Source of the DNA: Lentibacillus sp.
GTDB taxonomy: Bacteria > Bacillota > Bacilli > Bacillales > Amphibacillaceae
Length of the DNA: 64,000 nt
NCBI RefSeq assembly: GCF_035301675.1
Contig: NZ_DATGTT010000017.1
Span: 1,662-65,661, forward strand
Direction of reading: 5' to 3'
Every line of letters starts with the position of its first letter. The first letter of the stretch is position 1. Positions 37,625-55,512 of this stretch are shown here, piece by piece. The position numbers and the translations under genes are program-made. The notes under the pieces are model-generated. The model had not been told where the DNA came from, searched no databases, and saw only the letters and a list, made by a program, of their open reading frames with translations.

Positions 37625-38632
37625 ATGTTATCAACCGCAGAAATCGGAATTGATTTAGGTACGGCGAACATACTTATTTATTCAAAATCAAAAGGAATTG
37701 TTTTAAATGAACCAGCTGTTGTTGCGATAGATTTAAATACGAAAAATGTTGTAGCAGTTGGATCAGAAGCGAAAGAAATGGTCGGCAAAACCCCGCAGAA
37801 CATTGTCCCAATCCGGCCATTGAAAGACGGTGTCATTGCTGACTATGATGTGACGGCACAAATGCTGAAGGAATTTTTGAAAAAAGTGAGCAAGAAAATG
37901 GGCTTATCCATGCGCAAACCAACAGTCGTCGTATGCACGCCATCAGGAAGCACAACCGTGGAACGCCGCGCAATCCATAATGCCGTTTCCAGCTATGGTG
38001 CCAAACATGTGCATTTGATAGAAGAGCCCGTCGCAGCTGCTATCGGTGCGGACTTGCCTGTCGATGAGCCAATCGCCAACGTGATCGTTGATATTGGCGG
38101 CGGAACCTCTGAAGTTGGCATCATCTCATTCGGTGGCGTTGTCTCCTGCAATTCCATTCGTACGGGCGGCGACAAAATGGATGAAGAAATCATTAATTAT
38201 ATCCGGAAGAAATATAATATTATGATTGGTGAACGTACTGCAGAGAACATTAAGATGGAGATCGGGTATGCCGATGAAAATCATAGAGAGGAATCCATGG
38301 ATGTCCGCGGACGTGACATGGTGACCGGCTTGCCAAAAACGGTGTCGGTTTCTTCCAAGGAAGTATACTCTGCACTGAAAGAATCACTGGAACAAATTCT
38401 GGAAACCATCCGGTCAACACTGGAAAATTGCCCGCCTGAATTGAGCGGTGATATCGTTGACCGCGGAATTGTACTGACCGGCGGCGGTTCCATGCTGAAC
38501 GGAATTCAGGATTGGTTGTCAGATGTAATCATCGTGCCTGTCCATATCGCGCCAACCCCCCTCGAATCTGTAGCCATTGGTACCGGACGTTCATTGAAGA
38601 TGATTTCAAAACTGCAGAAAGCTGCTAAATAA
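37625..38632 (+). CDS. mreBH: Actin-like rod shape protein MreBH
   Basis: [28 protein letters not shown]; monocistronic, no mreC. Confidence 0.88.
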
Positions 38633-38651
38633 CAATTTCATACTGTCACGG

Positions 38652-38689
38652 GAAACCGCGCTTGCCATTGTTGGCATGCGCGGTTTTTT
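38652..38689 (+). terminator. Terminator of mreBH
   Basis: AAACCGCGC-TGCCA-loop-TGGCA-GCGCGGTTTTTT. Confidence 0.8.
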
Positions 38690-38710
38690 CGTGGTTTAAT
38701 GTTGTGTTAA

Positions 38711-38790
38711 TCTCGGGCTGAAGTTTGTGCACTCGGGCTGAAGTTTTCATTCTCGGGCTGAAGTTTGCATTTTCGGGCTGAAGTTTGCCG
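38711..38790 (+). repeat. 20-bp tandem array, 4 units
   Basis: TCGGGCTGAAGTTT at 38713, 38733, 38753, 38773 with variable 6-bp linkers. Confidence 0.9.
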
Positions 38791-38880
38791 CTTCCACCCG
38801 CTCTTCTTTTAAATTTATTACACACCATAAAAAGGGTTTTTGACATTTTTATGGAATAATACGTATGAAGAGGTGATCAA

Positions 38881-39234
38881 ATGTATACAGTAATTTATCT
38901 TTATCGCGTTAATCGGAAACATGCCCAGGAATTTATCGACATCAAAAAACAGGCGGGTGAAATCTGTCTGTCACATGGTGCACTGGAAGATAACACTTAT
39001 TTGCCTGAAAATCTTCATGGAAATTATGGCTGCAAAGGGTTGGTTGATGTGATTCAAAAAGAAGAAAATGAAGAGATCTTTTTAGGACAATCAGTATTCC
39101 GGAATAAATCACACCATGATGATGTTATAAAACAAGTAGATGAAAATCCCGAGTTTAACAAGCTTTTTAATGAAATCACGTCAATGATTAATCTCTCAAA
39201 AGTTATCAGCGCCACCTTTTCAACAGATAATTAA
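38881..39234 (+). CDS. DUF1428-like dimeric alpha/beta barrel protein
   Basis: GAGGTGA RBS; SHGALE, FRNKSHHDDVIKQV pattern. Confidence 0.55.
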   Translation: MYTVIYLYRVNRKHAQEFIDIKKQAGEICLSHGALEDNTYLPENLHGNYGCKGLVDVIQKEENEEIFLGQSVFRNKSHHDDVIKQVDENPEFNKLFNEITSMINLSKVISATFSTDN

Positions 39235-39244
39235 TGATCACCTG

Positions 39245-39300
39245 TTTACATATTTTTCAGAATACTATATAATAAGATTAATCATGTTAAAGCGCTTCCA
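39245..39300 (+). promoter_or_regulatory. Sigma-A promoter and candidate cre site for the CoA-transferase operon
   Basis: TTTACA-N17-TATAAT (39245-39273); TTAAAGCGCTTCCA (39287-39300) resembles the CcpA cre consensus. Confidence 0.6.
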
Positions 39301-39467
39301 CGCTACTGCGCATGATGCATACTTTCGCAAACCCAAAACTGCCTAGTCTGTTTACAGTTCAATGCCAGTTCTGAACCAACAGATAAAAGCCAGTTCAAAT
39401 TGACCTCGCAGAATACTGTGGGCTTTTTGAAGTGGCTCATTTTATTGTTACAGGAAGGAGTGATGAA

Positions 39468-40628
39468 GTGGCTGGAGCACTTGAGAATGTTAAGATTCTT
39501 GATTTATCACGTGTGCTTGCCGGACCATATTGTACGATGATCCTCGGTGACCTTGGTGCTGAAGTCATCAAAGTAGAAGCACCGGGCGGTAGTGATGAAA
39601 CACGCAAATGGGGCCCGCCTTTTCAAAATGATGTCAGCGCCTATTACCTCTGTGCCAACCGGAACAAAAAAAGCATTACGCTTGATCTAAAGTCTTCGGA
39701 AGGCAATGCGGCAATCAAGGAACTCGTACGCGAGAGTGACGTCATCATTAATAATTTTAAAGCCGGAACCATGCAGCGGCTTGGACTCGATTATGACACA
39801 CTCGCGGAAATTAACCCGGGAGTCGTTTATTGCTCAATCACCGGCTTTGGTGAAACAGGACCATATAAAGATATGCCAGGCTATGACTTTATCATTCAGG
39901 CGATGAGTGGACTAATGAGTATTACGGGCGACAGCGAATCCGGTCCGCAAAAGGTTGGTGTCGCCATCACGGATATTCTCACCGGACTTTACGCATGCAT
40001 CGGCATTCAAGGTGCACTGCTTGAACGCACACAATCAGGCAAAGGACAAAAGCTCGACCTTTCCCTGTATGATTCAGCAGTCAGTTCGCTTGTCAATATC
40101 GGCAGCAACTATTTGATGGCCGGCAAAAAACCGTCTGCACTGGGAAATCAGCACGCGAACATTGTCCCGTACCAGACATTTTCAACAAAGGACGGCGAGA
40201 TGGTGATTGCTGTCGGAAACGATAACCAGTTCAAACGATTATGCGATATTTTGGAAATACCCGAATATGCATCAGACGAACGCTATCGAACAAATCCTGA
40301 CCGTGTGACAAATCGGGAAACCCTGATCCCGCTGCTTCAGGAAGTATTTTCGACCCAACGGACTGCTTATTGGCAGGAAAAATGTCAGGAAAACAGTATA
40401 CCATGCGGGCCGATTCAAACAATCGATGAGGTTGCCAATGATCCGCAGCTGAATGAGCGTGATATGTTCATTAACGCTGACCACCCGACAGCAGGTGACA
40501 TCCGGATGATCGGCAGCCCGCTGAAACTGTCGCGCACACCAGTAACCACACGGCACCACCCGCCGAATGCCGGTGAACATACGGATGCAATATTGGAACA
40601 ATACGGAATTTCAAAACTAAAAAATTAG
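39468..40628 (+). CDS. Family III (CaiB/BaiF) CoA transferase, succinyl-CoA:glutarate CoA-transferase-like
   Basis: ILDLSRVLAGPY, LGDLGAEVIKVE, TRKWGPPF, NRNKKS, PGYD; GTG start after GGAAGGAG. Confidence 0.88.
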   Translation: MAGALENVKILDLSRVLAGPYCTMILGDLGAEVIKVEAPGGSDETRKWGPPFQNDVSAYYLCANRNKKSITLDLKSSEGNAAIKELVRESDVIINNFKAGTMQRLGLDYDTLAEINPGVVYCSITGFGETGPYKDMPGYDFIIQAMSGLMSITGDSESGPQKVGVAITDILTGLYACIGIQGALLERTQSGKGQKLDLSLYDSAVSSLVNIGSNYLMAGKKPSALGNQHANIVPYQTFSTKDGEMVIAVGNDNQFKRLCDILEIPEYASDERYRTNPDRVTNRETLIPLLQEVFSTQRTAYWQEKCQENSIPCGPIQTIDEVANDPQLNERDMFINADHPTAGDIRMIGSPLKLSRTPVTTRHHPPNAGEHTDAILEQYGISKLKN

Positions 40629-40639
40629 GGGATGATCAA

Positions 40640-41842
40640 ATGGATTTTAATTTTTCAGAAGAACAAAATATGCTGCGCAGTACAGTGAAAAGCTTTGTCG
40701 ATAAAGAAATCATGCCATACATCGCCGAGTGGGACCGGGAAGGACAATTCGATCCGGCTATCATGCAGCGTCTCGCAGATCTTGGTCTGATGGGCGTCTG
40801 CATCCCGGAAAAATACGGTGGCAGCGGTATGGATTACAATTCGCTTGCTATTGTTTGCGAAGAACTCGAACGTGGAGACACCGCATTCCGTACAGCAGTT
40901 TCCGTTCATACCGGCCTGAACAGCATGACCCTGCTGCAATGGGGCACTGAAGAGCAAAAACAAAAATACCTCGTGCCTCAGGCCAAAGGTAAAAAAGTCG
41001 GTGCTTATGGTCTGACAGAGCCCGGTGCCGGGTCAGACGTTGCCTCGCTTCAGTCGACTGCCGTCAAAGACGGTGATCATTACATCCTGAACGGATCGAA
41101 ATCATGGATTTCCTTATGTGACACAGCCGATCATTTTCTTGTATTTGCCTATACCGATAAAGAAAAACGGCATAAAGGCATTTCGGCCTTCATTGTCGAA
41201 CGAAATTGGGAAGGGTTTGACTCAAAAGCGACGAAAGGCAAACTTGGCATCCGCTCCGGCAACACCGGTGAAATCTTTTTCGATCATGTTAAAGTACCGA
41301 AAGAAAATCTTCTTGGTGAGGAAGGTGAAGGATTCAAAATAGCCATGGCAGCGCTTGATAACGGGCGATTCACCGTGGCTGCGGGGGCTGTCGGTCAAAT
41401 CCGTGCCTGCCTTGAAGCAAGTGTCAAATATGCCAATGAACGTGAAACATTCGGCAAACCCATCGGTCAGCACCAGCTTGTCCAGCAAATGATCGCCAAC
41501 ATGAAGGCAGGACTGGAAATGAGCAGTCTGCTCGTCTACCGTGCCGGCGAATTGAAAAATGAAGGGAAGCGTAATACAGAAGAAACCTCCATGGCCAAAT
41601 GGCAGGCGTGTGATTTTGCCAACAAAGCTGCAGATGATGCTGTCCAGGTGCATGGCGCATATGGCTATTCGGATGAATACCCGGTTGAGCGTTATTTGCG
41701 CAACTCAAAAGCACCGGTCATATACGAAGGAACGCGTGAAGTGCACACACTTATGCAGGCCGGCTATGCATTAGGCTACCGGGAAGATAAACCATTAAAC
41801 AAAATGCTCCCGGCATGGGATGGCAACAAAGCAAAGATATAG
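40640..41842 (+). CDS. Acyl-CoA dehydrogenase, probable glutaryl-CoA dehydrogenase
   Basis: LTEPGAGSD, IYEGT; ELERGDTAFRTAVSV aligns with GCDH ELERVDSGYRSAMSV including the carboxylate-binding Arg. Confidence 0.8.
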   Translation: MDFNFSEEQNMLRSTVKSFVDKEIMPYIAEWDREGQFDPAIMQRLADLGLMGVCIPEKYGGSGMDYNSLAIVCEELERGDTAFRTAVSVHTGLNSMTLLQWGTEEQKQKYLVPQAKGKKVGAYGLTEPGAGSDVASLQSTAVKDGDHYILNGSKSWISLCDTADHFLVFAYTDKEKRHKGISAFIVERNWEGFDSKATKGKLGIRSGNTGEIFFDHVKVPKENLLGEEGEGFKIAMAALDNGRFTVAAGAVGQIRACLEASVKYANERETFGKPIGQHQLVQQMIANMKAGLEMSSLLVYRAGELKNEGKRNTEETSMAKWQACDFANKAADDAVQVHGAYGYSDEYPVERYLRNSKAPVIYEGTREVHTLMQAGYALGYREDKPLNKMLPAWDGNKAKI

Positions 41843-41956
41843 GCCGATCACAAAAGTATTGCTCATCAGCAGAGGGAAAGTGCGAGACTTCTGTGTCCCC
41901 CCCTCTGCATTCTTCATGTAAGACATCATTATCTATTTAATTAAGGAGGTCTTCAA

Positions 41957-43408
41957 GTGAAGCTCAAAAGCAAAACAAACAGCATTTTTATTGATGGGAT
42001 TTGGCAAGATATGAACGGACAGGAAACCGAAACCGTCTATAATCCGGCAACTTTGGAGGCGATTACGGAGGTCGCATATGGCGGAAAGACTGAAACCAAA
42101 GCTGCCATTCAAGCTGCATCACGTGCTTTTAAAACGTGGGGAGAAATGACAGGCCGGCAGCGTTCGCGGATTTTATATAAAGCGCATGAATTAATGCTCG
42201 AGGATGCCGAGCGGCTCGGCGAAATTTTAACTGCTGAACAGGGGAAGCCGCTGAAGGAAGCAGTCGGTGAAGTGAAAGGCGCCGCCAACTTTTTGCTCTG
42301 GTATGCCGAGGAAGCAAGCCGGGCTTATGGTGAATGGATTCCATCATCCATTAAAACCAAGCGCCTGCTTGTCATCCCGCAGCCTGTTGGTGTCGTTGGT
42401 GCGATTACACCATGGAACTTCCCATCATCTATGATCACCCGAAAAATCGGTCCGGCTCTGGCAGCAGGCTGTACGGTCATTTTAAAACCAGCCCCGGAAA
42501 CACCGCTTTCGGCGATTGAAATTGTGAAGATCATGGAAAAAGCCGGCATGCCGGATGGTGTTGTGAATTTAGTGACCGGTGATGCGGAGGCAATCGGCAA
42601 TACCATGCTTGAAAGCAAAGATGTCCGTCTGATGACATTCACTGGATCCACTGAAGTCGGGAAATATCTCATGCGGGAAAGTGCCGACCATGTCAAAAAA
42701 TTATCGCTTGAACTAGGCGGACACGCCCCAATTATCGTGTTTGACGATGCGTCTATCGATAAAGCGGTCTCGCTGGCATTAGCAAGCAAATTCCGGAATA
42801 ATGGCCAGACGTGTATCTGCGCCAACCGGATTTATGTCCATGAATCGGTTAAAGACGCTTTCAATAAAAAACTTACCGAAAAAGTTGCCAAACTTAAAGT
42901 GGGTGAGGGCACCGAGGAAGGAACAGATCTCGGACCGCTGATCAATGAGCAGGCATCTCAAAAAGTGCAGAAACACCTTGATGATGCGGTGTCCAAAGGT
43001 GCAGAAATCGTTTGCGGCGGTGACAAATGGAACGGCGGCCTGGATGGCTATTTCTATCGGCCTACCGTTCTATCAGGCGTGACCGATGAGATGATCGTTA
43101 TGAACGAAGAAACATTCGGCCCGCTTATGCCGGTGCAAACTTTCAGCGATGAGGATGCCGTGATCAAGAAAGCAAATGATACCGACTATGGCCTTGCAGC
43201 CTACATTTTCACCGAAACAACGAGCCGAGCCATCCGGGTATCGGAAAAACTTGATTATGGCATTGTCGGCGTGAATGACGTCTTCCCGGCCGTAGCTGAA
43301 GCACCGTTCGGCGGCATCAAGCAGTCTGGCGTCGGTAAAGAAGGCGGTCATCACGGTATGGAAGAATTTTTGGAGAAAAAGTATGTATCGATGGGGATCG
43401 ATGGCTGA
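41957..43408 (+). CDS. gabD: NAD(P)-dependent succinate/glutarate-semialdehyde dehydrogenase
   Basis: ITPWNFPSSMITRK, LELGGHAP, KFRNNGQTCICANR, EETFGP. Confidence 0.85.
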   Translation: MKLKSKTNSIFIDGIWQDMNGQETETVYNPATLEAITEVAYGGKTETKAAIQAASRAFKTWGEMTGRQRSRILYKAHELMLEDAERLGEILTAEQGKPLKEAVGEVKGAANFLLWYAEEASRAYGEWIPSSIKTKRLLVIPQPVGVVGAITPWNFPSSMITRKIGPALAAGCTVILKPAPETPLSAIEIVKIMEKAGMPDGVVNLVTGDAEAIGNTMLESKDVRLMTFTGSTEVGKYLMRESADHVKKLSLELGGHAPIIVFDDASIDKAVSLALASKFRNNGQTCICANRIYVHESVKDAFNKKLTEKVAKLKVGEGTEEGTDLGPLINEQASQKVQKHLDDAVSKGAEIVCGGDKWNGGLDGYFYRPTVLSGVTDEMIVMNEETFGPLMPVQTFSDEDAVIKKANDTDYGLAAYIFTETTSRAIRVSEKLDYGIVGVNDVFPAVAEAPFGGIKQSGVGKEGGHHGMEEFLEKKYVSMGIDG

Positions 43409-43572
43409 TTCAGTTTTTAATTTGGAATTATTTTGAAATCAGCGCTATAGGTGAGGCGAGAGTCGCTGCAGATTTGCATTGCATCTCTGCTAATTGAGCA
43501 GGAATCGCTATAGATATATTAATAACTGCTGATAAAAAGTCATCTATCATGTCACTTTCTAAGCAGATAAAA

Positions 43573-43900
43573 GAGGCTGAGACAAAAGTAATGAATCAAA
43601 GAAAAAATCCGAACGATGATTTGAAATTCTTCAGTTAGATTTTAAATCAGTTCGGATTTTTCTTTTTATAGTATAATTCGTTTTCACTTAAACCAGCGTA
43701 GGAAAAATGCGGAGACCCCTGGGGGAGCATAGGCCTGGATGAGACCCCGCAGTGCGACAGCGCGAAAAGGCTCGTCAGCCGCCCCCGGAAAGCGAAGCAT
43801 TTTTCCGCAGCGATGGTTAAGATTTATCCATACATTCCACTTAAATATTCCGGTTATCATTCGTCTTTTATGTTAAACGTTTTAGTTATGTCCCAGCCCC
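43573..43900 (+). mobile_element. Family B MITE-like element, most complete copy
   Basis: TIRs GAGGCTGAGACAAAA ... TTATGTCCCAGCCCC; AAAAATCCGAAC/GTTCGGATTTTT sub-palindrome; structured GAGACCCCGC core. Confidence 0.82.
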
Positions 43901-43905
43901 TTCTT

Positions 43906-44226
43906 CTAATGATGATCCCCCCGATAATGCTCGTACTGCCGGTACAAATCATGCAATGCAGAGACAAGCGCATTTCCGGCTTTTCCCAAATAGTGTTCTT
44001 TCATCGTTTCAGCAGGCTGATCAATGCCGTCCTGCAGACTGTGCCCTCTTAAAAGATGATGGACAAAATGCCTGCCGTGCTCAGTTGCAAGGGTGCAGTT
44101 GGCGGCTACAATCACCCCATATTTTTTATCGATTTCCGCTGTTATCGTGAGCGTTTCATAAATGCTTTTTGCTGCCATTCCGGATGGCAGCCTGGCATGG
44201 CCGGCGATAAATACCGTATTCATCAT
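43906..44226 (-). CDS. DUF3870-like protein
   Basis: TVFIAGHARLPSGMAAKSIYETL, CTLATE pattern; downstream of IclR. Confidence 0.7.
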   Translation of the reverse strand: MMNTVFIAGHARLPSGMAAKSIYETLTITAEIDKKYGVIVAANCTLATEHGRHFVHHLLRGHSLQDGIDQPAETMKEHYLGKAGNALVSALHDLYRQYEHYRGDHH

Positions 44227-44238
44227 ATCTCATTCCCT

Positions 44239-45012
44239 TCAGTTAAAATCCGGTCCACGGTAACCGAGTTTTCTGGAAATTGCCTCAGCTGATGTTTTTG
44301 TTTTCTTCTTCAGGCATTCCAGGTTCTCCCCTTCGAAGCGACGGGACAACCCGCTGACCGCCAGTGCGGCGATAACCTGATTACTATAATCATAGATAGG
44401 AGACGATATTCCTGTCGTATCAGCGTCCTGTTCTCCGATACTATAGGCATACTCATTTTCATAAATCGTCTGAAGTTCCTGAAGCAACTCTTTCCTATTA
44501 ATCGTACCGCTATCGCCAGGCCGATGCAATTCCGATTCTGTTAAAATTTCTTCCTGCCTTGCCCTGGACATGTTTGCCAGCAGCATTTTCGGGCCGGACC
44601 CCAAATAAAGGGGTGAGCTTTTGCCGACTCTGGTATTTAGTCTCAGTGCTCTTGAACTGTCTACCTTTTCAATATAGGTCGCTTCGCCCTGATTGGCAAT
44701 AACCAGGTGAATTACCTCATTAATATCACCGGCAAGCTTTTGCATATCCGGCAAGGCGATTGACCGAATTTCCAGCTGATCGGAAACAATTTGTCCAAGC
44801 TCGAGCAGCTTCAGTCCAAGCTGATATTTGCTGTCATGCTCATTCTCTTTCGTTTTATATAAGAAATTGCCTGACTCCAGAGCTGATAACAGCCGGTAAG
44901 CAGTTGGCTTTGGAATCCCGGCTTTCCCGGCAATTTCCTTTAAAGTCAGTTCCGGTGTATCTGGTGAGAAATAATTTAACAAATTCATTGCTTTGATGAC
45001 ACTCTGATTCAT
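44239..45012 (-). CDS. IclR family transcriptional regulator
   Basis: NQSVIKAMNLL, PKPTAYRLLSAL HTH, YQLGLKLLELG, C-terminal effector domain. Confidence 0.93.
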   Translation of the reverse strand: MNQSVIKAMNLLNYFSPDTPELTLKEIAGKAGIPKPTAYRLLSALESGNFLYKTKENEHDSKYQLGLKLLELGQIVSDQLEIRSIALPDMQKLAGDINEVIHLVIANQGEATYIEKVDSSRALRLNTRVGKSSPLYLGSGPKMLLANMSRARQEEILTESELHRPGDSGTINRKELLQELQTIYENEYAYSIGEQDADTTGISSPIYDYSNQVIAALAVSGLSRRFEGENLECLKKKTKTSAEAISRKLGYRGPDFN

Positions 45013-45132
45013 AGAGAAAACTCCTTGCAGTTATAATGACAACAATCTTTAAGACAAGAAACCATGCTCCAATCAGCAGTCCGTAAAGAAAAAAGCTGCC
45101 GCAAAAAGCAGAGCAGCCCTTTCAATAAAGGA

Positions 45133-46305
45133 TTAATTTGTTACATGTGCTTTCTTCGCACTGTTTGTTTCATGGATATTCACACCACGTTTAGCCATTT
45201 CCTCAATATAAGTATCCCCTGGAACAATCTGCTCAGGCGGATAAACACCACGTTTTGTAATCGTTCCGTTTGCAATCATCTGGGCAACAACAGAAATCGT
45301 GTTGGCGGTCGCGCGGGCCATAGCTGTTACGTTATGTTCTCTGTCTTTGTATGTTGTCATTTCAAATACATGTGTTTCGGGCTGGGCATCTTTTGTACCA
45401 TTCACTTTAACCCGAAGCAATACAACATCATCCTTTTCCCCAAGGTCAACAATCGGATCAAGCACTTTGAGCAATACTTCCCTTGGATTAATCTCCTGGC
45501 CATTGACATCAACCGAATAATCCATCCGTGTCAGATTCAAGTCAACGAGCAGCTTAAATTTCTCAGCGTGGCCCGGGTAGCGAATCGTTTTATATTCCAG
45601 CGCCTTCAATTGCGGGTACGAAATGGACAGTGTTGATGTGCCGCCTGATGTATGGAAAGCTTCAAGCGGACCGAACTTCTCAAAATGGACACGCTCAACT
45701 TCAGTCAAAGATTCAATTTCCTGTTTGACACCGTCACGGATGATCAATGCCGGATCAGTATAATGATCAAAAACCCCTTCCATTGAAAAAACATGATTGT
45801 ATTCAAACGGCGGCTCAGGATTGACCGGAATTCCGCCAACATACAGTTTAATCTCTTCCAATCCGTCAAGCTTGCTTTCGCCGTGACCGGATAAAATATT
45901 GATCATGCCCGGTGCCACACCCAAGTCAGGGATTAATGTAACCCCGGCGGCTTTAGCGTCCTCCTTCATCCCAAGGACCTTATCGGTCACATGGCCGATG
46001 TGCCCGCCTAAATCCACCGAATTGACGCCGACCTCAATTGCGGTCTCAGCAACGATCTCATTAAAGGAGTAAAATAATGCATTGATAACGACATCAAACT
46101 GCCGCATGTAATTGCCAAGTTCCTGTTTATCCTTTGCGTTAACCTGATAGGCTGTCAGTTTTGGAGAATTTAATTGATCGATAACACTCTGTGCGATTTT
46201 AATGTCGATATCAGCCAGGCCAACCGCTGTAACACCTTCACTTGACGCCAAATCACGAGCGGCCTCTTTTCCCATAAGTCCAGATCCGAGTACACCAATT
46301 TTCAT
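45133..46305 (-). CDS. lysDH: L-lysine 6-dehydrogenase (saccharopine dehydrogenase family)
   Basis: [57 protein letters not shown] closely recall Geobacillus stearothermophilus LysDH. Confidence 0.82.
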
Positions 46306-46511
46306 ACTTTCTTCACTCCCGATAAAATACTTCTATTTTTCTCCCCCTTAGGGAAGGCTGTCTCCCATTTACTTCGGATTTCCCCTGATTCCAGCAATCT
46401 CTTTCCCGTATTCAAGTTGTTGTCTCCCGAATTGATAGACTCCTGCCAGATAGGGTCTCTACCTTCCAGTATACTCCCCCGTTTTAGAAACTTATTCCAC
46501 CGGCTTATTGC

Positions 46512-48008
46512 TTACTCTGTATCAATCTGTGCACGCTGCAGCTTGCCGCTATAATCAATGTAAACTGCTTTCCATTCGGTGAACACATCGAGTGCCTGTA
46601 CGCCGGAGTCGCGATGTCCGTTCCCGGTTCCTTTTGTGCCGCCGAACGGTAAGTGAATTTCGGCACCTGTTGTACCGGCGTTCACGTAAACAATTCCGGT
46701 GTCAAGGTCCCGCTGTGCTTTGAACACACGGTTGGCATCTGTTGTGAAAATTGAGCTTGAAAGACCATACGAGACGCCATTGTTCACTTCGATGGCTTCT
46801 TCAAAACTCTTCACCGGAATGAGAGAGATAACAGGCCCAAAGATTTCTTCCTGAGAAATGCGCATATCTGCTGTGCAGTCCGTAAACAGGGTTGGTGCGA
46901 AATAATGCCCGTTTATATATTTGCCGCCATCAAGCACATAACCGCCGGCAACGAGCTTGGCCCCTTCTTCCTTGCCGATCTGAATATATTTTTCGATTTT
47001 TTCAAGACCAGCCTTGTTGATAATCGGCCCGACTGTATTTGACTCATCCAAGCCGTCGCCGATGGTCAATTTTTCGATTTCAACGAGCAGCCGCTCCTCG
47101 AGCTGTTCTTTCACGTCTTCATGAACAATTACCCTGCTTGCCGCTGTACAGCGCTGGCCGCTTGTGCCATAAGCGCTCCAGAGAATGCCTTCCACTGCCA
47201 GATCAAGATCGGCATCGTCCATGACCGTAATCGCATTTTTACCACCCATTTCAAGTGAAACTTTTTTCAACTGCTTGCCGCATTCGCTTGCAATATTGCG
47301 GCCGGTGTCATTGGATCCGGTAAATGAAATGACCCTGATATCATCATGGTGCACCATCGCATCACCGACCTGTGAGCCTTTACCATATACCACATTCATG
47401 ATGCCTTTGGGCAGTCCTGCTTCCTCAAGAATCTTCGCCAGTTCAAAGGCCATGATTGGCGTTTCAGTCGCAGGCTTCCAGATAACCGCATTGCCCGCAA
47501 CGATGGCCGGGAATGACTTCCAGGTAGCAATCGCAATCGGGAAATTCCACGGTGTGATGATGCCGACAACGCCAACCGGTGCACGCTGGCTCATCGAAAA
47601 CTTATTCGGAAGCTCCGCCGGCGTGGTATGACCAAACAGGCGGCGCCCCTCTCCTGCCATGTAAAACGCCATATCAATGCCTTCCTGCACTTCACCGCGT
47701 GCCTCTTCCAGCACTTTTCCGTTTTCCATCGTCAGCAGCTGCGAAAGCCGTTCCTTCCGCTCTTTCATTAACTGGCCGACTTTAAACAATACCTCTGCCC
47801 TTTGTGGCGCAGGTACCAGTGCCCATTCCTTTTGCGCTTTTTTCGCAGCTTCCACTGCATTATTGACAGCCCCGCCATCTGAGAGGGGAACATTTACGAC
47901 TGTTTCACCGTTCGCCGGATTGATCACCTCAGCGGATTGACTGGTTTCCTCCCATTTTCCGTTAATAAAATTGTTCAGTTTTTTTGTCTCAAGCAAACTT
48001 TGAGCCAT
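46512..48008 (-). CDS. Aldehyde dehydrogenase, ALDH7/aminoadipate-semialdehyde dehydrogenase-like
   Basis: GEVQEGID, LEMGGKN, GTSGQRCT, GTTGAEIHLPFGG. Confidence 0.85.
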   Translation of the reverse strand: MAQSLLETKKLNNFINGKWEETSQSAEVINPANGETVVNVPLSDGGAVNNAVEAAKKAQKEWALVPAPQRAEVLFKVGQLMKERKERLSQLLTMENGKVLEEARGEVQEGIDMAFYMAGEGRRLFGHTTPAELPNKFSMSQRAPVGVVGIITPWNFPIAIATWKSFPAIVAGNAVIWKPATETPIMAFELAKILEEAGLPKGIMNVVYGKGSQVGDAMVHHDDIRVISFTGSNDTGRNIASECGKQLKKVSLEMGGKNAITVMDDADLDLAVEGILWSAYGTSGQRCTAASRVIVHEDVKEQLEERLLVEIEKLTIGDGLDESNTVGPIINKAGLEKIEKYIQIGKEEGAKLVAGGYVLDGGKYINGHYFAPTLFTDCTADMRISQEEIFGPVISLIPVKSFEEAIEVNNGVSYGLSSSIFTTDANRVFKAQRDLDTGIVYVNAGTTGAEIHLPFGGTKGTGNGHRDSGVQALDVFTEWKAVYIDYSGKLQRAQIDTE

Positions 48009-48039
48009 ATGTTATACCTCCTAAAATTGATGATAAATA

Positions 48040-49713
48040 CTATTTTTTAGCACGATTACGGATTTGTGCAATCGTGGATGAAACGGAAATATGCTCCTTT
48101 TCAGCCATAATTTCAATGACTGCCGGCATATTTTTTTGCAGTGCTGCATCAAACACTTCAGCAAATTGATCGGCTGTTTTCACCAAATACCCATCAGCCC
48201 CGACACTTTCAGCCAAATCTTTGAATGAAACACTTCCTAAATCAGTACCGATGACTTTTTCAGGATAGTGCATTTCCTGATGCATCCGGATTGTCCCGTA
48301 CATTTGATTGTTAAACACGAGACTGATGACCGGAATCTGGTATCTGACTGCGGTTTCCAGCTCTTGCATGGTCATCATGAATCCGCCGTCACCAGCCAAA
48401 GCGATGACCGGTTTATCCGGCAGGGCAAGTTTTGCCCCGAGTGCCCCCGGAAGACCATACCCCATAGCACCTGAAGTCGGTCCCACATACGTATGTTTCT
48501 CCTTAAACGGATAAAAAGCGTGCAGCCAGCCTGCAAAGTTACCGGCATCATTGGTGAGCAGTGCGTTATCAGGCAATAAGCCCGCCATCATTGCCACTAT
48601 ATGTTTGTTGATCACATCTTTATGCGAAACATCCAGACTGCTGACTTCCTCAAAAGCACACCGGCGTTCGTTCACCCAATTTTTCCAGCCCACCTGGATA
48701 TCCATGCCTTCCAACGCCTTTAGCGCTTTTTCTCCATCCGCGACTATCCCGGCATCAGGACTGTAAACCTTGCCAATGATGTCATAACTGATATCGATGT
48801 GAATCAGTTTTTTCTCTGGCGTCAGGATCTGATAATCCTGTGTGGTCACCTCTGATAGCCGTGTGCCGATTGCCATGACAACATCCGCTTCCTTCACGGT
48901 CTGCAGGATATTTGGGCTGGTTCCCAGTCCAAGGTGTCCCGCATATAATGGATGATTGTTTGGAAACACGTCCTGTCTGCGAAATGCTGCAATAACAGGC
49001 AGATGGTATTTTTCAGCAAAAGACAAAAGAGCATCTTCAGCTTCTGAAGCTTTCACACCCCCGCCGGCAATGATCAGCGGTTTTTCTGCTGCATCAAGCA
49101 GCTCTTTAACTTGTGTGATTTCTTCTTCGGCTGGAACAGGCTTCGGTTTCACAGCGGGCGGCCCAAACGTCATCTCCGCCTCAGCTGGCAGGATGTCCTC
49201 CGGCAATGACAGGACAACCGGGCCCGGTCGTCCTGTCCGGGCTATGCGGAATGCCCGCTGCACAATCTCTGCCATGCGTTCCGGGTCTTTCACTTCAACA
49301 GCCCACTTGGCGGTATGCTGAAAATACTGGTCCAGATCAATTTCCTGAAAGCCTTCCCTGCCGCGGAACTTGCTGTGCACCTGCCCCAGAAAAACAACCA
49401 TTGGCGTGGAGTCCTGATAAGCGGTATGAACACCGATGGAAAGGTTTGACGCACCCACACCGCGTGTGGCCATAACAACACCGGGTTTTAGGGATGACTT
49501 GGCATACCCTTCTGCCATAAATGCTGCACCGCTTTCATGCCTTGTCGATATCAATCTGATGGAGGCTTCATCGTGCAGTGCATCCATTAAAGGCAGGTAA
49601 CTTTCGCCGGGAACACAGAACGCATCACTTATCCCCTCTATTTTCATACACTCCACAATTGCCTGTGCTGCGGTCATCGTTTTGGTTTTTCTGGGTTTCA
49701 CTGTCGTTTTCAT
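48040..49713 (-). CDS. ThDP-dependent enzyme (acetolactate synthase-like decarboxylase superfamily)
   Basis: CVPGESYL, TRHESGAAFMA, GDGGFMM...FNN ThDP motif; no ilvH small subunit nearby. Confidence 0.9.
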   Translation of the reverse strand: MKTTVKPRKTKTMTAAQAIVECMKIEGISDAFCVPGESYLPLMDALHDEASIRLISTRHESGAAFMAEGYAKSSLKPGVVMATRGVGASNLSIGVHTAYQDSTPMVVFLGQVHSKFRGREGFQEIDLDQYFQHTAKWAVEVKDPERMAEIVQRAFRIARTGRPGPVVLSLPEDILPAEAEMTFGPPAVKPKPVPAEEEITQVKELLDAAEKPLIIAGGGVKASEAEDALLSFAEKYHLPVIAAFRRQDVFPNNHPLYAGHLGLGTSPNILQTVKEADVVMAIGTRLSEVTTQDYQILTPEKKLIHIDISYDIIGKVYSPDAGIVADGEKALKALEGMDIQVGWKNWVNERRCAFEEVSSLDVSHKDVINKHIVAMMAGLLPDNALLTNDAGNFAGWLHAFYPFKEKHTYVGPTSGAMGYGLPGALGAKLALPDKPVIALAGDGGFMMTMQELETAVRYQIPVISLVFNNQMYGTIRMHQEMHYPEKVIGTDLGSVSFKDLAESVGADGYLVKTADQFAEVFDAALQKNMPAVIEIMAEKEHISVSSTIAQIRNRAKK

Positions 49714-50892
49714 CTAACTGGTCACCTCCTTTAAATTCAACTGGCTCATACGGTCGATGACGTCATCCAATCGTTCAGTTGTAACCGTAAGCGCCACCCT
49801 GAAGTACCCTTCCCCCCGTGAACCAAACGCATTTCCGGGGGTGACAATCACACCCGCTTCGTGCAGCAATTTATTTGCAAACGACATCGACGTAAAGCCG
49901 TCCGGCACTTTTGCCCAAAGAAAAATTGTGCCATTCGGTTTATCAGCCTTGATACCAAGCTTTTCGAACGCTTTATAAAGTTTCTCCATGCGTTGCTGAT
50001 AAACAGTGTTATGTTTTTGAACTTCCGAAAAATCACTTCGCAGTGCAGCAGCGGCAGCTTTTTGAATCGGCAAAAACTGGCTTGAATCAATATTGCTTTT
50101 AAATGCTGCCAATGCATTAATGACTTCTTTGTTACCGACAAGATAGCCTATCCGCCAGCCTGTCATGTTAAAGCTCTTCGACAGGGAACCAAACTCCACT
50201 GCGCATTCTTTAGCATCAGGAATTTGCATCACACTAGGTGCTTTATAACCATTAAATGTAATCATGTCATACGCTGCATCATGCACAAGCAGCATTTGAT
50301 TTTCCCGGGAAAATGCAATCGCTTTCAAAAATGTGTCATAACTAATCGTAGCTGCTGTCGGGTTGCCCGGATAGTTTAATAGCATTAATTTTGCCTGATT
50401 GATAGATTCTTGGTCCACATAATCATATAGCGGCACATAACCATTTGCGTCATCCAGCGGCAGTGCCGTACTCTTCCCGCCGGCTAAATGTACAGCCGTT
50501 CCATAAACTGGATATCCGGGATCTGGAATCAGCACAGTATCCCCGGGGTTGATGGTTGCATGCATCAGATTGGCAATCCCTTCTTTTGATCCGATCACAG
50601 CGAGCACTTCCGTCTCCGGGTCCAAGTCGACATCATACTGTTTTTTATAAAAGTGGGCAACCGCTTCTTTGAATTCTTTAGCACCGCTATATGTGGAATA
50701 GCGATGATTGGCAGGAATTTTTGATTCCTCGGCCAGCCGGTCAACAATAAAATCAGGTGTCGGCAAATCCGGTGCGCCAATTCCCAAATCAATCACATCA
50801 ACACCGTCCGCCTGAAGTTCCTTTTTCTTCTTCTGAAATTCGGAAAATAAATATGGCGGTAAATTGCTCACTTTATCAGAAACAAAAGACAT
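49714..50892 (-). CDS. Class I/II PLP aminotransferase (DapL/MtnE-like)
   Basis: IDLGIGAPD, GSKEG, LNYPGNPT, HDAAY, SLSKSFNMTGWRIG. Confidence 0.92.
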   Translation of the reverse strand: MSFVSDKVSNLPPYLFSEFQKKKKELQADGVDVIDLGIGAPDLPTPDFIVDRLAEESKIPANHRYSTYSGAKEFKEAVAHFYKKQYDVDLDPETEVLAVIGSKEGIANLMHATINPGDTVLIPDPGYPVYGTAVHLAGGKSTALPLDDANGYVPLYDYVDQESINQAKLMLLNYPGNPTAATISYDTFLKAIAFSRENQMLLVHDAAYDMITFNGYKAPSVMQIPDAKECAVEFGSLSKSFNMTGWRIGYLVGNKEVINALAAFKSNIDSSQFLPIQKAAAAALRSDFSEVQKHNTVYQQRMEKLYKAFEKLGIKADKPNGTIFLWAKVPDGFTSMSFANKLLHEAGVIVTPGNAFGSRGEGYFRVALTVTTERLDDVIDRMSQLNLKEVTS

Positions 50893-50905
50893 CCCATATC
50901 CCCCT

Positions 50906-50973
50906 ATTTCATTTTGTGAAATGCCATTTCATTAATCTGATGTAAGTGTAAATCACCGTCTGAAAAATTGCAA
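50906..50973 (-). promoter_or_regulatory. Sigma-A promoter with downstream operator-like inverted repeats
   Basis: TTGCAA-N17-TACACT; ATTTCA-N5-TGAAAT-N3-ATTTCA at 50906-50931. Confidence 0.65.
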
Positions 50974-51015
50974 CTGTCGCTAAATATTTTCTTTTATATA
51001 ATTCAAGCTTTTAGA

Positions 51016-51075
51016 AGCCCGCTCAAGGTCCTGTGCTCGCGCCCATGTTTTCATTCTGGCGCCCATACTAATACT
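51016..51075 (+). repeat. Degenerate 20-bp tandem array
   Basis: CTCGCGCCCATGTTTTCATT resembles CTCGGGCTGAAGTTTTCATT of the 38711 array; GCGCCCAT recurs 20 bp later. Confidence 0.5.
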
Positions 51076-51188
51076 CGATGCCAGTGTTAAAATTCTTTTT
51101 TTCTGCCAGTAAAATGATTAAACATTCCAAACATCTCAGTTGACTGTTATGATTAAGGAAATCCATCAATTCTTTTAAACGGGGTGCT

Positions 51189-52463
51189 ATGATGAATACC
51201 GAAAAAGCGTATGCGGCTTATTTGGACCAGCAGGATGAGCTGGCAAATTTCCGGGATGAATTTTATATACCTGAAAATACCATTTATATGGACGGCAATT
51301 CACTTGGACTGTTGTCAAAACGGGCGGAGCAGGCCGTTGATGACATGATGGCTTCGTGGAAAACATATGCCATTGACGGATGGACAAATGGCAATGAACC
51401 GTGGTATTACCTGTCCGAAAAGCTGGGCGCGGTGACGGCTCCGTTAATCGGTGCCAGTCCTGAGGAAGTCGTTGTTACCGGATCGACGACCACTAACCTG
51501 CATCAGCTCACCGCCAGTTTTTATCAACCTGAGGGAAAGAAAACTAAAATACTTGCAGATACATTGAACTTTCCGTCTGATATTTATGCGCTGAAAAGTC
51601 AATTGAAGCTGAAAGGCTATAATCCGGATGAACACCTTATACAAGTCGAAAGCAATGATGGCAATATGCTCGACACAAAGGACATTATCGATGCGATGGC
51701 CGACGATGTTGCCCTCATCGTCCTTCCCGGTGTCTTGTACCGGAGCGGCCAAGTGCTCGATATGAAAACATTGACGGATGAAGCACATAGACGCGGGATT
51801 CCAATCGGCTTCGATCTTTGCCACTCTATCGGATCGGTTCCGCACCAATTATCAAAATGGGGTGTCGACTTTGCATTTTGGTGCACGTATAAACATTTGA
51901 ATGCAGGCCCCGGAAGTGTCGCGGGACTATATGTGAACCGGAAACATTTTGGCCGCGAACCCGGGCTTGCCGGATGGTTCAGTTCATCAAAGGAGAAACA
52001 ATTTGATATGGAGCATACACTCACACCCGCTCAAGATGCAGGCACTTATCAGATCGGCACACCGCATCTGTTAAGTGCTGCACCACTGCTTGGTTCGTTA
52101 GAGATGTTCGCACAGGCTGGAATTGACAACATCCGCCAGAAATCACTCCAGCTCACGCAATATTTTATAGAACTGCTGGAAACTGAGCTGACCGATTACG
52201 GATTTACAATCGCCAACCCAAGAAAAACTGAAGAACGCGGCGGACATATCTACCTTGAACACCCGGATGCTGCACGCATTTGCAAGGCTTTAAAAGCAGA
52301 CGGGGTCGTACCTGATTTTCGCAAGCCGAACGGTATCCGCCTGGCGCCTGTCGCACTGTATAACAGCTTTACAGAGGTATGGAAGACCATTCAAATACTG
52401 AAAACAATCATGAACGAGGAGCGTTATAAACAATATGAAAACGAAAGGGGTATCATTGCCTGA
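51189..52463 (+). CDS. kynU: Kynureninase
   Basis: [36 protein letters not shown]. Confidence 0.96.
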
Positions 52464-53110
52464 TGGGACATGTAAAATGGATCGATATTTCACAGCCGCT
52501 CACAAATGATATGGCCCACTTCCCCGGTGACACGCCATTTAACTACGAGCTGACGTTTACAAAACAACACACCGGATCAGTGAACGTCGGACAAATTACC
52601 GGCAGTGTCCACACCGGCACACACATTGACGCGCCGTACCACTATGATTCCGGCGGTAAGACAGTTGATCAATTGGATATTAATCTGTACATCGGCGAGG
52701 CTGTCGTCATTGATGTCAGCCACACCAAGAAAATAACGGCCGAAACACTAAAACCGTTTAACCTGGATGGCGCAACACGTGTTTTGCTGCATACGTCACT
52801 GCCGAATAACCCGAAACATTTTCCCGATCAAATGCCAGAGCTTGACCCCAGTGTTGCGGCATTTCTTCACGAACATGACGTCAATCTGATCGGTGTTGAT
52901 TTGCCTTCTGTCGATCCGCCTGAAAGTAAGGATCTTGCTGCACACCATGCACTCTATGACAAGAACATTTTCATTCTGGAAAACCTGATGCTTGATCACG
53001 TCAAGCCTGGACGCTATGAACTTGTTGCACTGCCGCTCGCGATTGATGGTGCTGACGGCAGCCCGGTCCGTGCTGTGCTGAGGTCAATTAAAAAACAGGA
53101 GGCGAACTGA
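52463..53110 (+). CDS. kynB: Kynurenine formamidase
   Basis: [27 protein letters not shown]. Confidence 0.95.
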
Positions 53111-53111
53111 C

Positions 53112-53948
53112 ATGAGCAATAATCCATTCGAACAGGAAAAAGGAATTCATACCGACTTCAAGGAAAAAATGACCTATGGGGATTACTTGCAGCTCGACAA
53201 CCTTTTGGACAGCCAAAAACGGCTTTCCAGCCATCATGATGAAATGCTGTTTATCATCATTCATCAAGTAAGCGAACTTTGGATGAAACTGATTATCCAC
53301 GAAACGAGAGGCGCTATTCAGGCGATCGAACAGGATAATCTGAGAGCTTCGTTTAAAATGCTTGCGCGCGTCTCAAAAATACAGTCGCAAATCATTCATG
53401 CCTGGGATGTGCTGGCAACCCTGACACCTGCCGAGTTTCTGGAGTTCCGCGATAAACTCGGAAATGCGTCAGGATTCCAGTCATACCAGTACCGTCTGGT
53501 TGAATTTGTTTTAGGCTATAAAACACCGCATATTTTAAAAATTTATGTAAAGAATCCGGAAGTTTATGCGATTTTGGAGGAAGCTTACTACAAACCGGGA
53601 CTTTATGATGTTGCCATCCAGGCTTTGGCCCGGCATGGATTTGACATTGATCGGGAAATCCTCGATCGTGATTTTTCCAAAACATACGAAAAGAATGCTT
53701 CAGTCGAGAAAGCTTGGATGGACGTGTACCGTGATGTATCAGTATATTGGGAACTATATGAGCTGGCGGAAAAGCTGGTCGATATTGAAGACTGGTTCCA
53801 GCAGTGGCGTTTCCGGCATATGAAAACGGTGGAACGGATCATCGGACATAAAATAGGCACCGGCGGCTCATCAGGTGTCGGTTATTTGAAACAGGTGCTC
53901 AATCACTATTTCTTCCCGGAATTATGGGAGCTTCGGACCAAAATATAA
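53112..53948 (+). CDS. kynA: Tryptophan 2,3-dioxygenase
   Basis: [47 protein letters not shown]. Confidence 0.97.
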
Positions 53949-54030
53949 TCCAGTTCAGTATGTGATTGTGGCCGATGCCAAAAATGGTATATAATATTGG
54001 TTACATTTTTAAAGTGGAGAGGAGTCAATT

Positions 54031-55365: not shown

Positions 55366-55512
55366 GTGCCGGAAGTCTGCATTGCAGGCTTCCTTTTATC
55401 TCGGCTGCTGAAACCAAAGCAAAATGATTGGGCCTTTAATTGTGAACTTTAGCATTTGGGGTTAATCCTTTTCAAAACAGGGAATTTTACTATGTAAAGG
55501 AGGTTATTACAT

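Follow-up and report, generated by a model that had tools for sequence, protein, structure and literature searches.

Several routes are described for the lower part of lysine degradation through aminoadipate. One of them has an entry of the L-lysine 6-dehydrogenase (LysDH) type, a step by an ALDH7-type aldehyde dehydrogenase (ALDH) and the transamination of aminoadipate, and it leaves 2-oxoadipate to a dehydrogenase complex of the DHTKD1 or 2-oxoglutarate dehydrogenase (OGDH)-E2-E3 kind, with glutaryl-CoA dehydrogenase as the exit. In Pseudomonas putida no dehydrogenase complex is used, and 2-oxoadipate made from 2-aminoadipate loses CO2 through one enzyme, HglS (YdcJ), an Fe(II) oxygenase that yields D-2-hydroxyglutarate. 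According to the accessible part of that work (Thompson et al. 2019, bioRxiv 10.1101/450254), a decarboxylase dependent on thiamine diphosphate (ThDP) was sought for 2-oxoadipate, with glutarate or its semialdehyde as the expected product, and HglS was what was found; Firmicutes are noted there as being without HglS. The locus described here lies in a 64,000-nucleotide stretch of a Lentibacillus sp. genome (GCF_035301675.1, contig NZ_DATGTT010000017.1; the whole stretch is called the window below). It has the parts listed above for the aminoadipate route, but adds a stand-alone ThDP-dependent enzyme of the PRK08199 family and a family III CoA transferase, which are usually present or absent together and imply free glutarate; unlike the P. 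putida oxygenase, this ThDP enzyme points to glutarate. The cluster very probably serves L-lysine catabolism through aminoadipate, and it is probable that the ThDP enzyme acts on 2-oxoadipate with free glutarate downstream. The more specific version, in which it decarboxylates 2-oxoadipate to glutarate semialdehyde and the free glutarate is then activated by the CoA transferase, is the one we lean towards, with less confidence.

The locus occupies positions 39468..50892 of the window, and its nine open reading frames, in two sets on opposite strands, are intact where the earlier note on this DNA had placed them; Pfam and NCBIfam concur with the family labels given there. Every step of the pathway is proposed from homology, residues and genome context. 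LysDH (45133-46305, minus strand) would convert lysine to piperideine-6-carboxylate, a step with strong orthology behind it, and the ALDH7-like enzyme (46512-48008, minus), judged by aligned diagnostic residues and gene order, would give 2-aminoadipate. A class I aminotransferase of the PRK09276 DapL-like subfamily (49714-50892, minus; NF006756) would then form 2-oxoadipate, and in the key step the ThDP enzyme (48040-49713, minus; NF006052), a predicted 2-oxoadipate decarboxylase, would release CO2 and leave glutarate semialdehyde. Oxidation to glutarate would fall to the semialdehyde dehydrogenase GabD where it is present, or to another such enzyme, so that this step is not tied to one gene; GabD itself (41957-43408, plus; TIGR01780), of the GabD/succinate semialdehyde dehydrogenase (SSADH) family, is an accessory member. 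The CoA transferase (39468-40628, plus; PF02515), which has a GTG start with a ribosome-binding site on its 5' side, would make the glutaryl-CoA that otherwise is formed by a dehydrogenase complex, and an acyl-CoA dehydrogenase (40640-41842, plus), likely a glutaryl-CoA dehydrogenase by its match to PDB entry 3mpi and its residues, would yield crotonyl-CoA and CO2. The other two genes, both on the minus strand, encode an IclR-family regulator, likely of the upper operon (44239-45012; PF09339 and PF01614), and a DUF3870 protein (43906-44226; PF12986). The upper genes are closely packed, with a gap of 0 between the aminotransferase and ThDP genes and of 31 bases between the ThDP and ALDH genes, and the transferase and dehydrogenase genes are 11 bases apart.

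The ThDP protein is a clear member of PRK08199 (747.4 bits with NF006052, cut-off 539) and has the catalytic Glu60 and the cofactor motif of ThDP enzymes (GDG...NN), from Gly441-Asp442-Gly443 to Asn468-Asn469. Its three-domain model, with a predicted local distance difference test (pLDDT) score of 92, has a TM score of 0.85-0.89 to acetolactate-synthase-like chains; the structure search for a substrate gave no clue, with the nearest solved relatives at most 34% identical. In acetohydroxyacid synthase the Lys of the PKD motif and the Arg of RFDDR have roles in carboligation. Here the alignments place Glu172 at that Lys, the second Arg of RFDDR is missing and the TIGR00118 score is 423 against a cut-off of 538, so we rejected acetohydroxyacid synthase. 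The pyruvate-oxidase-like model PRK08611 gives 316, with a cut-off of 742. The function of 2-oxoadipate decarboxylase is predicted for PRK08199 from profile and neighbourhood evidence.

Within the genus, a ThDP orthologue was present in all 24 genomes drawn, and in 15 of the 16 loci fetched both gene sets lay inside 19.9 kb. Among named organisms, the ThDP protein has its nearest relatives in Lentibacillus and Virgibacillus, and a phylum-wide draw gave 3 matches in 301. At the level of the order we used one draw of 251 Bacillales genomes, our own included, searched with four proteins. Positive genomes numbered 42 for the ThDP enzyme and 72 for the dehydrogenase, LysDH had 50 at E 1e-40, of which 48 were kept at E 1e-100, and the transferase had 67 at E 1e-100, of which the 53 with at least 53% identity, above a gap in the scores, were kept. 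The ThDP enzyme and LysDH coincide in 38 genomes, and ThDP enzyme, LysDH, CoA transferase and dehydrogenase are found together in 31 of the 251. These counts show a grouping of the gene sets beyond chance, which the earlier note had proposed to profile, and a cluster that is conserved across Bacillales; a fixed unit of seven enzymes is not supported, as GabD often is missing from the cluster and the lower genes also occur without the upper ones.

The strongest pattern is in the 40 genomes that have both LysDH and the dehydrogenase, where an intact transferase is found in 31 of the 32 with the ThDP gene versus 1 of the 8 without it (by genus, 19 of 20 versus 1 of 5). Such a pattern would arise if it is the ThDP enzyme that makes the transferase necessary. 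The six genomes that lack both genes occupy four places forced by supported branches in the LysDH tree, one pair being sister to genomes with both, in a tree of 46 rows from which most same-genus rows were left out and in which the background label mixes all other genomes. In each of the six the dehydrogenase still adjoins the upper genes and OGDH E1 is present, as would be expected if they use the dehydrogenase complex; ThDP-negative Bacillales clusters (L075, L076, L077, L080 and L088; G and L numbers are our handles for genomes and loci) look exactly like an aminoadipate route ending in the complex. In the seventh genome without an intact transferase, G383, the gene is in two pieces beside the dehydrogenase. 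A family-level search found a PRK08199 member above the cut-off in 0 of 10 genomes that are positive for LysDH and negative for the ThDP gene, and HglS was not found in the host genome, which is 88% complete.

The link between ThDP enzyme and CoA transferase, which the earlier note had drawn from a single locus, has separate backing in gene order outside Bacillota. Searching named genomes with the ThDP alignment returned 75 loci, of which 60 lie outside this phylum. In 6 of the 60 the order is LysDH-like, PRK08199, ALDH, and all four of these ALDHs that were tested pass the cut-off for piperideine-6-carboxylate dehydrogenase, as does an Azospirillum neighbour. In 4 further loci PRK08199 lies directly behind a CaiB gene, with one of two CaiB proteins tested passing the succinate-glutarate transferase cut-off, and an annotated Rhizobium leguminosarum record has the same pair. 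Among 121 genomes of the order of G572 (an Allorhizobium record, L160) there is a CaiB-like gene in 73 and both genes in 63, and counted from coordinates CaiB is immediately upstream of PRK08199 on the same strand in 11 of these 63. Depending on the lineage, the family is thus found next to the upstream enzymes or next to the downstream one.

Plasmid copies of PRK08199 adjoin transporters, flavin oxidoreductases or hydantoinase-like genes. On plasmids of the Sulfitobacter group (L027, L031) the company is a TRAP transporter, an oxidoreductase dependent on flavin adenine dinucleotide (FAD), a 2-hydroxyacid dehydrogenase and larB, which suggests entry of a 2-hydroxy diacid. Hydantoinase/oxoprolinase genes follow LysDH in G039 (L082) and precede the aminotransferase and ThDP genes on Rhizobium plasmids (L026, L028), and they are candidates for opening the lactam of 2-aminoadipate. 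In several families (L014, L034, L065, L076, L077) a set of four genes stands beside the cluster, coding for a protein like ornithine cyclodeaminase or pyrroline-2-carboxylate reductase, an FAD-dependent oxidase, a CdaR-like regulator and a PutP-like symporter; this set could feed D-lysine or pipecolate into the pathway of the cluster.

The aminoadipate upper half proposed in the earlier note is supported by LysDH orthology, ALDH residues and gene order. Over 384 residues LysDH shares 67% identity with a Geobacillus stearothermophilus protein that its source names L-lysine dehydrogenase, and a Geobacillus LysDH gene lies in the same order of aminotransferase, ThDP enzyme, ALDH and LysDH; the protein of our locus is on this ground an orthologue of L-lysine 6-dehydrogenase, and its best PDB match is PH1688 (3abi). 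The ALDH is likely a piperideine-6-carboxylate/aminoadipate semialdehyde dehydrogenase. The accessible part of a 2025 review (PMC12041015) gives the equivalents of Glu120 and Arg300 as diagnostic for ALDH7, and the Glu109 region and Arg286-Cys287 of our protein have the corresponding residues in alignment with a protein that passes NF050084, not directly with 2JG7. The Glu and Arg-Cys positions are invariant in 58 of 58 orthologues, and the ALDH remains beside LysDH where the ThDP gene is absent.

For the aminotransferase, 2-aminoadipate aminotransferase is the likely function (516.5 with NF006756, cut-off 507). A biosynthetic DapL was tried and rejected, since TIGR03540 gives 508 against a cut-off of 593 and the gene is retained whatever diaminopimelate route the genome uses. 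The host has Ddh, and the aminotransferase is kept both in G013 and G024, where DapF is found in fragments below the cut-off, and in G002 and G019, which have DapH; that it is kept irrespective of the route, including in the two genomes with fragmented DapF, makes a biosynthetic role unlikely. The diaminopimelate routes vary inside this one genus (among G000, G002, G013, G016, G019 and G024), with Ddh in four of five genomes tested, DapH in two of five and DapF fragmented in two of five.

Of the lower enzymes, the CoA transferase is likely a succinyl-CoA:glutarate CoA transferase of the CaiB/GcdG/SUGCT-like kind, as it is matched by SUGCT 9br6 at E 4e-107 and is 46% identical to a rhizobial protein above the NF052585 cut-off. 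A decarboxylating glutaryl-CoA dehydrogenase is the likely identity of the acyl-CoA dehydrogenase, as the earlier note had it. Its second-best PDB match is the glutaryl-CoA dehydrogenase 3mpi (E 5e-99), with which Arg84 aligns to an Arg, and Tyr362-Glu363 stands for the Val-Glu of that non-decarboxylating enzyme. All three residues are invariant in 43 of 43 orthologues. Work by Wischgoll et al. in 2010 is said to have found that the decarboxylating type is marked by a carboxylate-binding Arg together with Tyr rather than Val before the catalytic Glu. GabD is above the SSADH cut-off of TIGR01780 by a marginal difference, 646.9 versus 646.35, and is present in 8 of 16 same-genus loci.

A number of observations weigh against this reading, and some of them are better suited to other explanations. 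Three of the enzymes score under the cut-offs of the families that we assign them to: the ALDH with NF050084 (429.6 versus 730), for which reason it is classed only as ALDH7-like, the transferase with NF052585, its best NCBIfam model (445.8 bits, cut-off 750; 71 of 73 alphaproteobacterial genomes with a match are likewise below), and the dehydrogenase with NF045552. The ThDP enzyme has no solved close relative (best 34% identity), and its substrate is read from context. Loss of the transferase is not rare, as it is missing in 11 of 29 genomes with the dehydrogenase alone; five of the six genomes that lack both it and the ThDP gene hold other, unrelated family III transferases elsewhere, and G464 has no transferase orthologue. 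In 18 genomes that have neither LysDH nor the ThDP gene, the transferase and dehydrogenase still occur as a pair; a dehydrogenase orthologue is missing from six genomes with LysDH and the ThDP gene, and LysDH from four genomes with the ThDP gene. Kin are not independent in any of the presence/absence or neighbourhood counts. Outside Bacillota, 50 of the 60 loci have no lysine or glutarate neighbour, which together with the plasmid contexts suggests that the PRK08199 family may hold several substrates. The separate regulation of the two gene sets also speaks against the tidy version of the pathway.

The patchiness of GabD suggests that several ALDHs share the semialdehyde step, or else that an oxidative enzyme bypasses it. 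The gene is present in only 13 of the 35 loci that have the ThDP enzyme, transferase and dehydrogenase (it is missing from 22), a genome-wide search at E 1e-160 did not find it in 5 of the 31 tested genomes that have LysDH, ThDP enzyme and dehydrogenase, and it occurs in the ThDP-negative cluster L077. Since the transferase at the same time is nearly always kept, one could imagine the same pathway with a ThDP enzyme that is a flavin-linked oxidase like pyruvate oxidase and takes 2-oxoadipate directly to glutarate, with no semialdehyde dehydrogenase needed. The adenine-nucleotide half of the acetolactate-synthase FAD site also appears to be retained, in Gly217-219, Arg285, Asp307 and Asp326, residues that we take to have roles in that site. 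To this may be objected that acetolactate synthase and glyoxylate carboligase keep this FAD site without redox chemistry, and that Glu37, which is acidic and invariant among the orthologues, presumably stands at the position of the proton-donating Asp of non-oxidative decarboxylases. Moreover, two of the five GabD-less genomes carry a GucD-like ALDH, that is, a semialdehyde dehydrogenase inside the cluster, with a GabT-like aminotransferase and without OGDH E1. We therefore consider an oxidase improbable. In L053 and L055 (G452, G481) the cluster is rearranged and has a GabT-like aminotransferase, a GucD-like ALDH, a permease and electron-transfer flavoprotein genes, and OGDH E1 and SSADH were not found in searches there.

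If GabD is instead taken at its SSADH score, the ThDP enzyme could be a 2-oxoglutarate decarboxylase that forms a succinate shunt with it, lysine carbon passing through the 2-oxoglutarate dehydrogenase complex and the transferase handling glutarate that derives from 5-aminovalerate or cadaverine or is taken from the medium. The host has OGDH E1, as do 42 of 44 genomes tested; PRK08199, above the cut-off in 95 of the 121 genomes of the order of G572, is near-core there, which also fits a central-metabolic role; and the leader of the lower operon, discussed below, also heads class III aminotransferase and permease genes. Acetolactate-synthase-like 2-oxoglutarate decarboxylases are described from cyanobacteria, and the accessible part of the same text (PMC10418658) cites the activity for Bradyrhizobium. 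Such a shunt would leave unexplained why the ThDP gene and the transferase are absent together, why PRK08199 adjoins piperideine-6-carboxylate dehydrogenase and CaiB genes in a second phylum, and why the ThDP gene is tightly linked to the aminotransferase under an IclR operator. GabD does not track the ThDP gene either, and we regard the shunt as a doubtful alternative. A quite different order of events, of the Ehrlich type, would have the aminotransferase take the alpha-amino group of lysine, the ThDP enzyme convert 6-amino-2-oxohexanoate to 5-aminopentanal, the ALDH give 5-aminovalerate and omega-transaminases continue toward glutarate. The order aminotransferase-ThDP-ALDH does resemble the AruH-AruI-KauB route for arginine, and some genomes (L013, L035, L053, L055) have class III aminotransferases and permeases added to the cluster, but LysDH would have no role in such a route, the ALDH retains the Glu and Arg of ALDH7, and in clusters without the ThDP gene (L076, L077, L088) the ALDH and the aminotransferase still accompany LysDH and the dehydrogenase, which makes it very unlikely. 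The preferred reading, a decarboxylase of 2-oxoadipate, must still be modified on one point. The earlier note saw the cluster as a bypass of 2-oxoadipate dehydrogenase; as the host retains OGDH E1, the route would run alongside the complex and would not stand in for one that has been lost.

The upper operon is likely controlled by IclR. A palindromic operator, RTTTCA-N5-TGAAAY, at 50906-50922 upstream of the aminotransferase is likely the IclR site, and with up to 2 mismatches it precedes the aminotransferase in all 27 loci that have IclR and in 1 of the 20 that lack it, against a shuffled rate of 0.047; these counts use a pattern derived from the window itself, and many of the loci are closely related. 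Upstream of the transferase it was found in 0 of 20 IclR loci, so a single IclR regulon over both gene sets was rejected. At the same place sites for CcpA (1 of 35) and sigma-54 (0 of 35) were at shuffle level.

The lower operon is instead likely under a separate leader of the terminator/antiterminator kind, spanning 39337-39447 on the plus strand. A sigma-70-type promoter-like site at 39245-39273 (plus) matches the consensus in 11 of 12 positions, the best in a scan that gave 26 sites versus 21.4 in shuffles and so is weak alone, and it has similar spacing in same-genus loci. From folds and an alignment of 21 sequences an antiterminator hairpin is predicted at 39337-39395 (plus), the 3' arm of which is the 5' arm of a predicted intrinsic terminator at 39388-39447 (plus; a hairpin of -24.3 kcal/mol with a U-rich tail), so that the two exclude each other. 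The terminator pattern precedes the transferase in 20 of 35 loci, and it occurs in 8 of 369 upstream regions of the other genes. In the alignment 89% of cells are paired and 14 have changes on both sides, as high as in 0 of 500 shuffles, for sequences that were picked by pattern, a basal helix that hardly varies and a structure derived from the same sequences. Rfam gave nothing at the gathering score in 38000-56000, the only match in 39230-39480 being Alpha_RBS at E 1.3. Two loci without the transferase (L212 in G502, L213 in G445) still have the leader terminator in front of the dehydrogenase, as if it had been left behind by a deletion.

A model of the leader matches upstream of the transferase at E <0.1 in 26 of 53 transferase genomes. 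All 26 are among the 43 that have DUF3870, and none of the 10 that lack it gives a match, with most positives in or near the training set. DUF3870, which often adjoins the dehydrogenase gene in the order draw and travels with the transferase-dehydrogenase pair, is thereby a candidate for the trans-acting factor of the leader. Searches of DUF3870 against PDB gave 0 matches by sequence and none by fold at E 0.001, with weak IscU-like rows only. The BglG/LicT ribonucleic antiterminator and GlpP leaders are protein-dependent antiterminator leaders of Firmicutes. Ours resembles such leaders in having a hairpin with a conserved basal sequence that overlaps the 5' arm of the terminator, and differs in its three-tier hairpin of about 60 nucleotides, the lack of an Rfam match and the lack of a regulator of their kind in the cluster, where DUF3870 is the only candidate. 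A second copy in our genome, at G000:C22:1274-1390 (L220; model E 0.007), has a strong terminator and precedes a class III aminotransferase and an amino acid permease; it lies a few kb from a gabT-gabD-like pair. An ABC transporter in G510 is likewise preceded by a copy, and in G452 and G481 so is the ThDP-LysDH operon; in these two genomes each of the divergent operons carries one. These copies suggest that the lower module is part of a wider regulon for omega-amines and glutarate, covering the upper genes in two genomes. The 18 genomes with lower genes only, together with a leader of its own, point to a second reason for it to exist, and the lower operon probably also serves catabolism of omega-amines of the 5-aminovalerate type.

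Around the locus, a DUF1428 gene (38881-39234, plus) lies 5' of the transferase, also in some same-genus loci, and a GC-rich repeated element at about 43690-43830, between gabD and DUF3870, has 39 blastn matches in its own genome and no Rfam match at the gathering score. Divergent from the aminotransferase are kynU-kynB-kynA, the three proteins of which are above their cut-offs, and a sodium-dependent transporter (51189-55365, plus). The kyn genes adjoin most same-genus loci, but are lost or partial in 6 of 16. Tryptophan as a source of 2-oxoadipate via these genes is not supported; 3-hydroxyanthranilate dioxygenase was not found, in a search that also matched 0 of 14 controls. Damaged copies occur within the genus (L012, L019): in G024 the ThDP gene is split over two frames, and in G014 a short remnant is all that is left of LysDH.

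Our literature search, with most subscription papers outside its coverage, found no account of the cluster, of the function of PRK08199 or of a native ThDP-dependent 2-oxoadipate decarboxylase, in agreement with the earlier note, which knew of no such route from Bacillaceae. The parts are of known kinds; it is their junction and the function of the family that appear undescribed. In its widest form, the claim would be that PRK08199 contains the native 2-oxoadipate decarboxylase, that this enzyme sets the course of lysine breakdown in many Bacillales and, in rhizobia, provides CaiB with free glutarate for BioZ-dependent biotin synthesis, and that the lower operon is under an attenuator RNA of undescribed type read by DUF3870; taken as a whole we find this evenly balanced. 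If true, it would add a third bacterial fate of 2-oxoadipate to the dehydrogenase complex and HglS, name the enzyme that the Pseudomonas work sought without finding, fill the lysine pathway of Bacillales, a group reported without HglS, and give a function to a large mis-annotated family, thousands of whose members now go under the names acetolactate synthase or "thiamine pyrophosphate-binding protein". The making of bio-based glutarate would also profit from a dedicated 2-oxoadipate decarboxylase, and the leader RNA with DUF3870 is a second, independent lead. For rhizobia, Hu and Cronan 2020 (PMC7645780) describe that Agrobacterium CaiB makes glutaryl-CoA from glutarate, that a caiB mutant needs biotin and that 2-oxoadipate feeds biotin synthesis in resting cells. 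Together these imply a step from 2-oxoadipate to glutarate, for which the accessible part of their text names no enzyme, and PRK08199 would be a specific candidate for the step behind this CaiB requirement.

The PRK08322 family, which we take to be that of the cyanobacterial 2-oxoglutarate decarboxylases, has a model that scores below its cut-off on the ThDP protein of the window, which passes PRK08199. The cyanobacterial system has a ThDP enzyme that turns a 2-oxo diacid into a semialdehyde and is paired with a semialdehyde dehydrogenase, as proposed here, but it works on a substrate one carbon shorter and in the tricarboxylic acid cycle, with 2-oxoadipate not among the substrates tested in the accessible part of PMC10418658. 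The lower half of the 5-aminovalerate route (DavT, DavD/GabD, GcdG/CaiB, GcdH) shares with our locus the semialdehyde dehydrogenase, the succinyl-CoA:glutarate CoA transferase and the glutaryl-CoA dehydrogenase; the difference is that the semialdehyde here would derive from 2-oxoadipate, and that there is no class III DavT-like aminotransferase in the cluster. Finally, Wang et al. reportedly engineered a glutarate pathway in E. coli in 2017 in which KivD and GabD take 2-oxoadipate through glutarate semialdehyde to glutarate. This is the same chemistry, so the step is feasible for a ThDP enzyme, though with a broad-range Lactococcus enzyme in a synthetic route and not in a native catabolic pathway.

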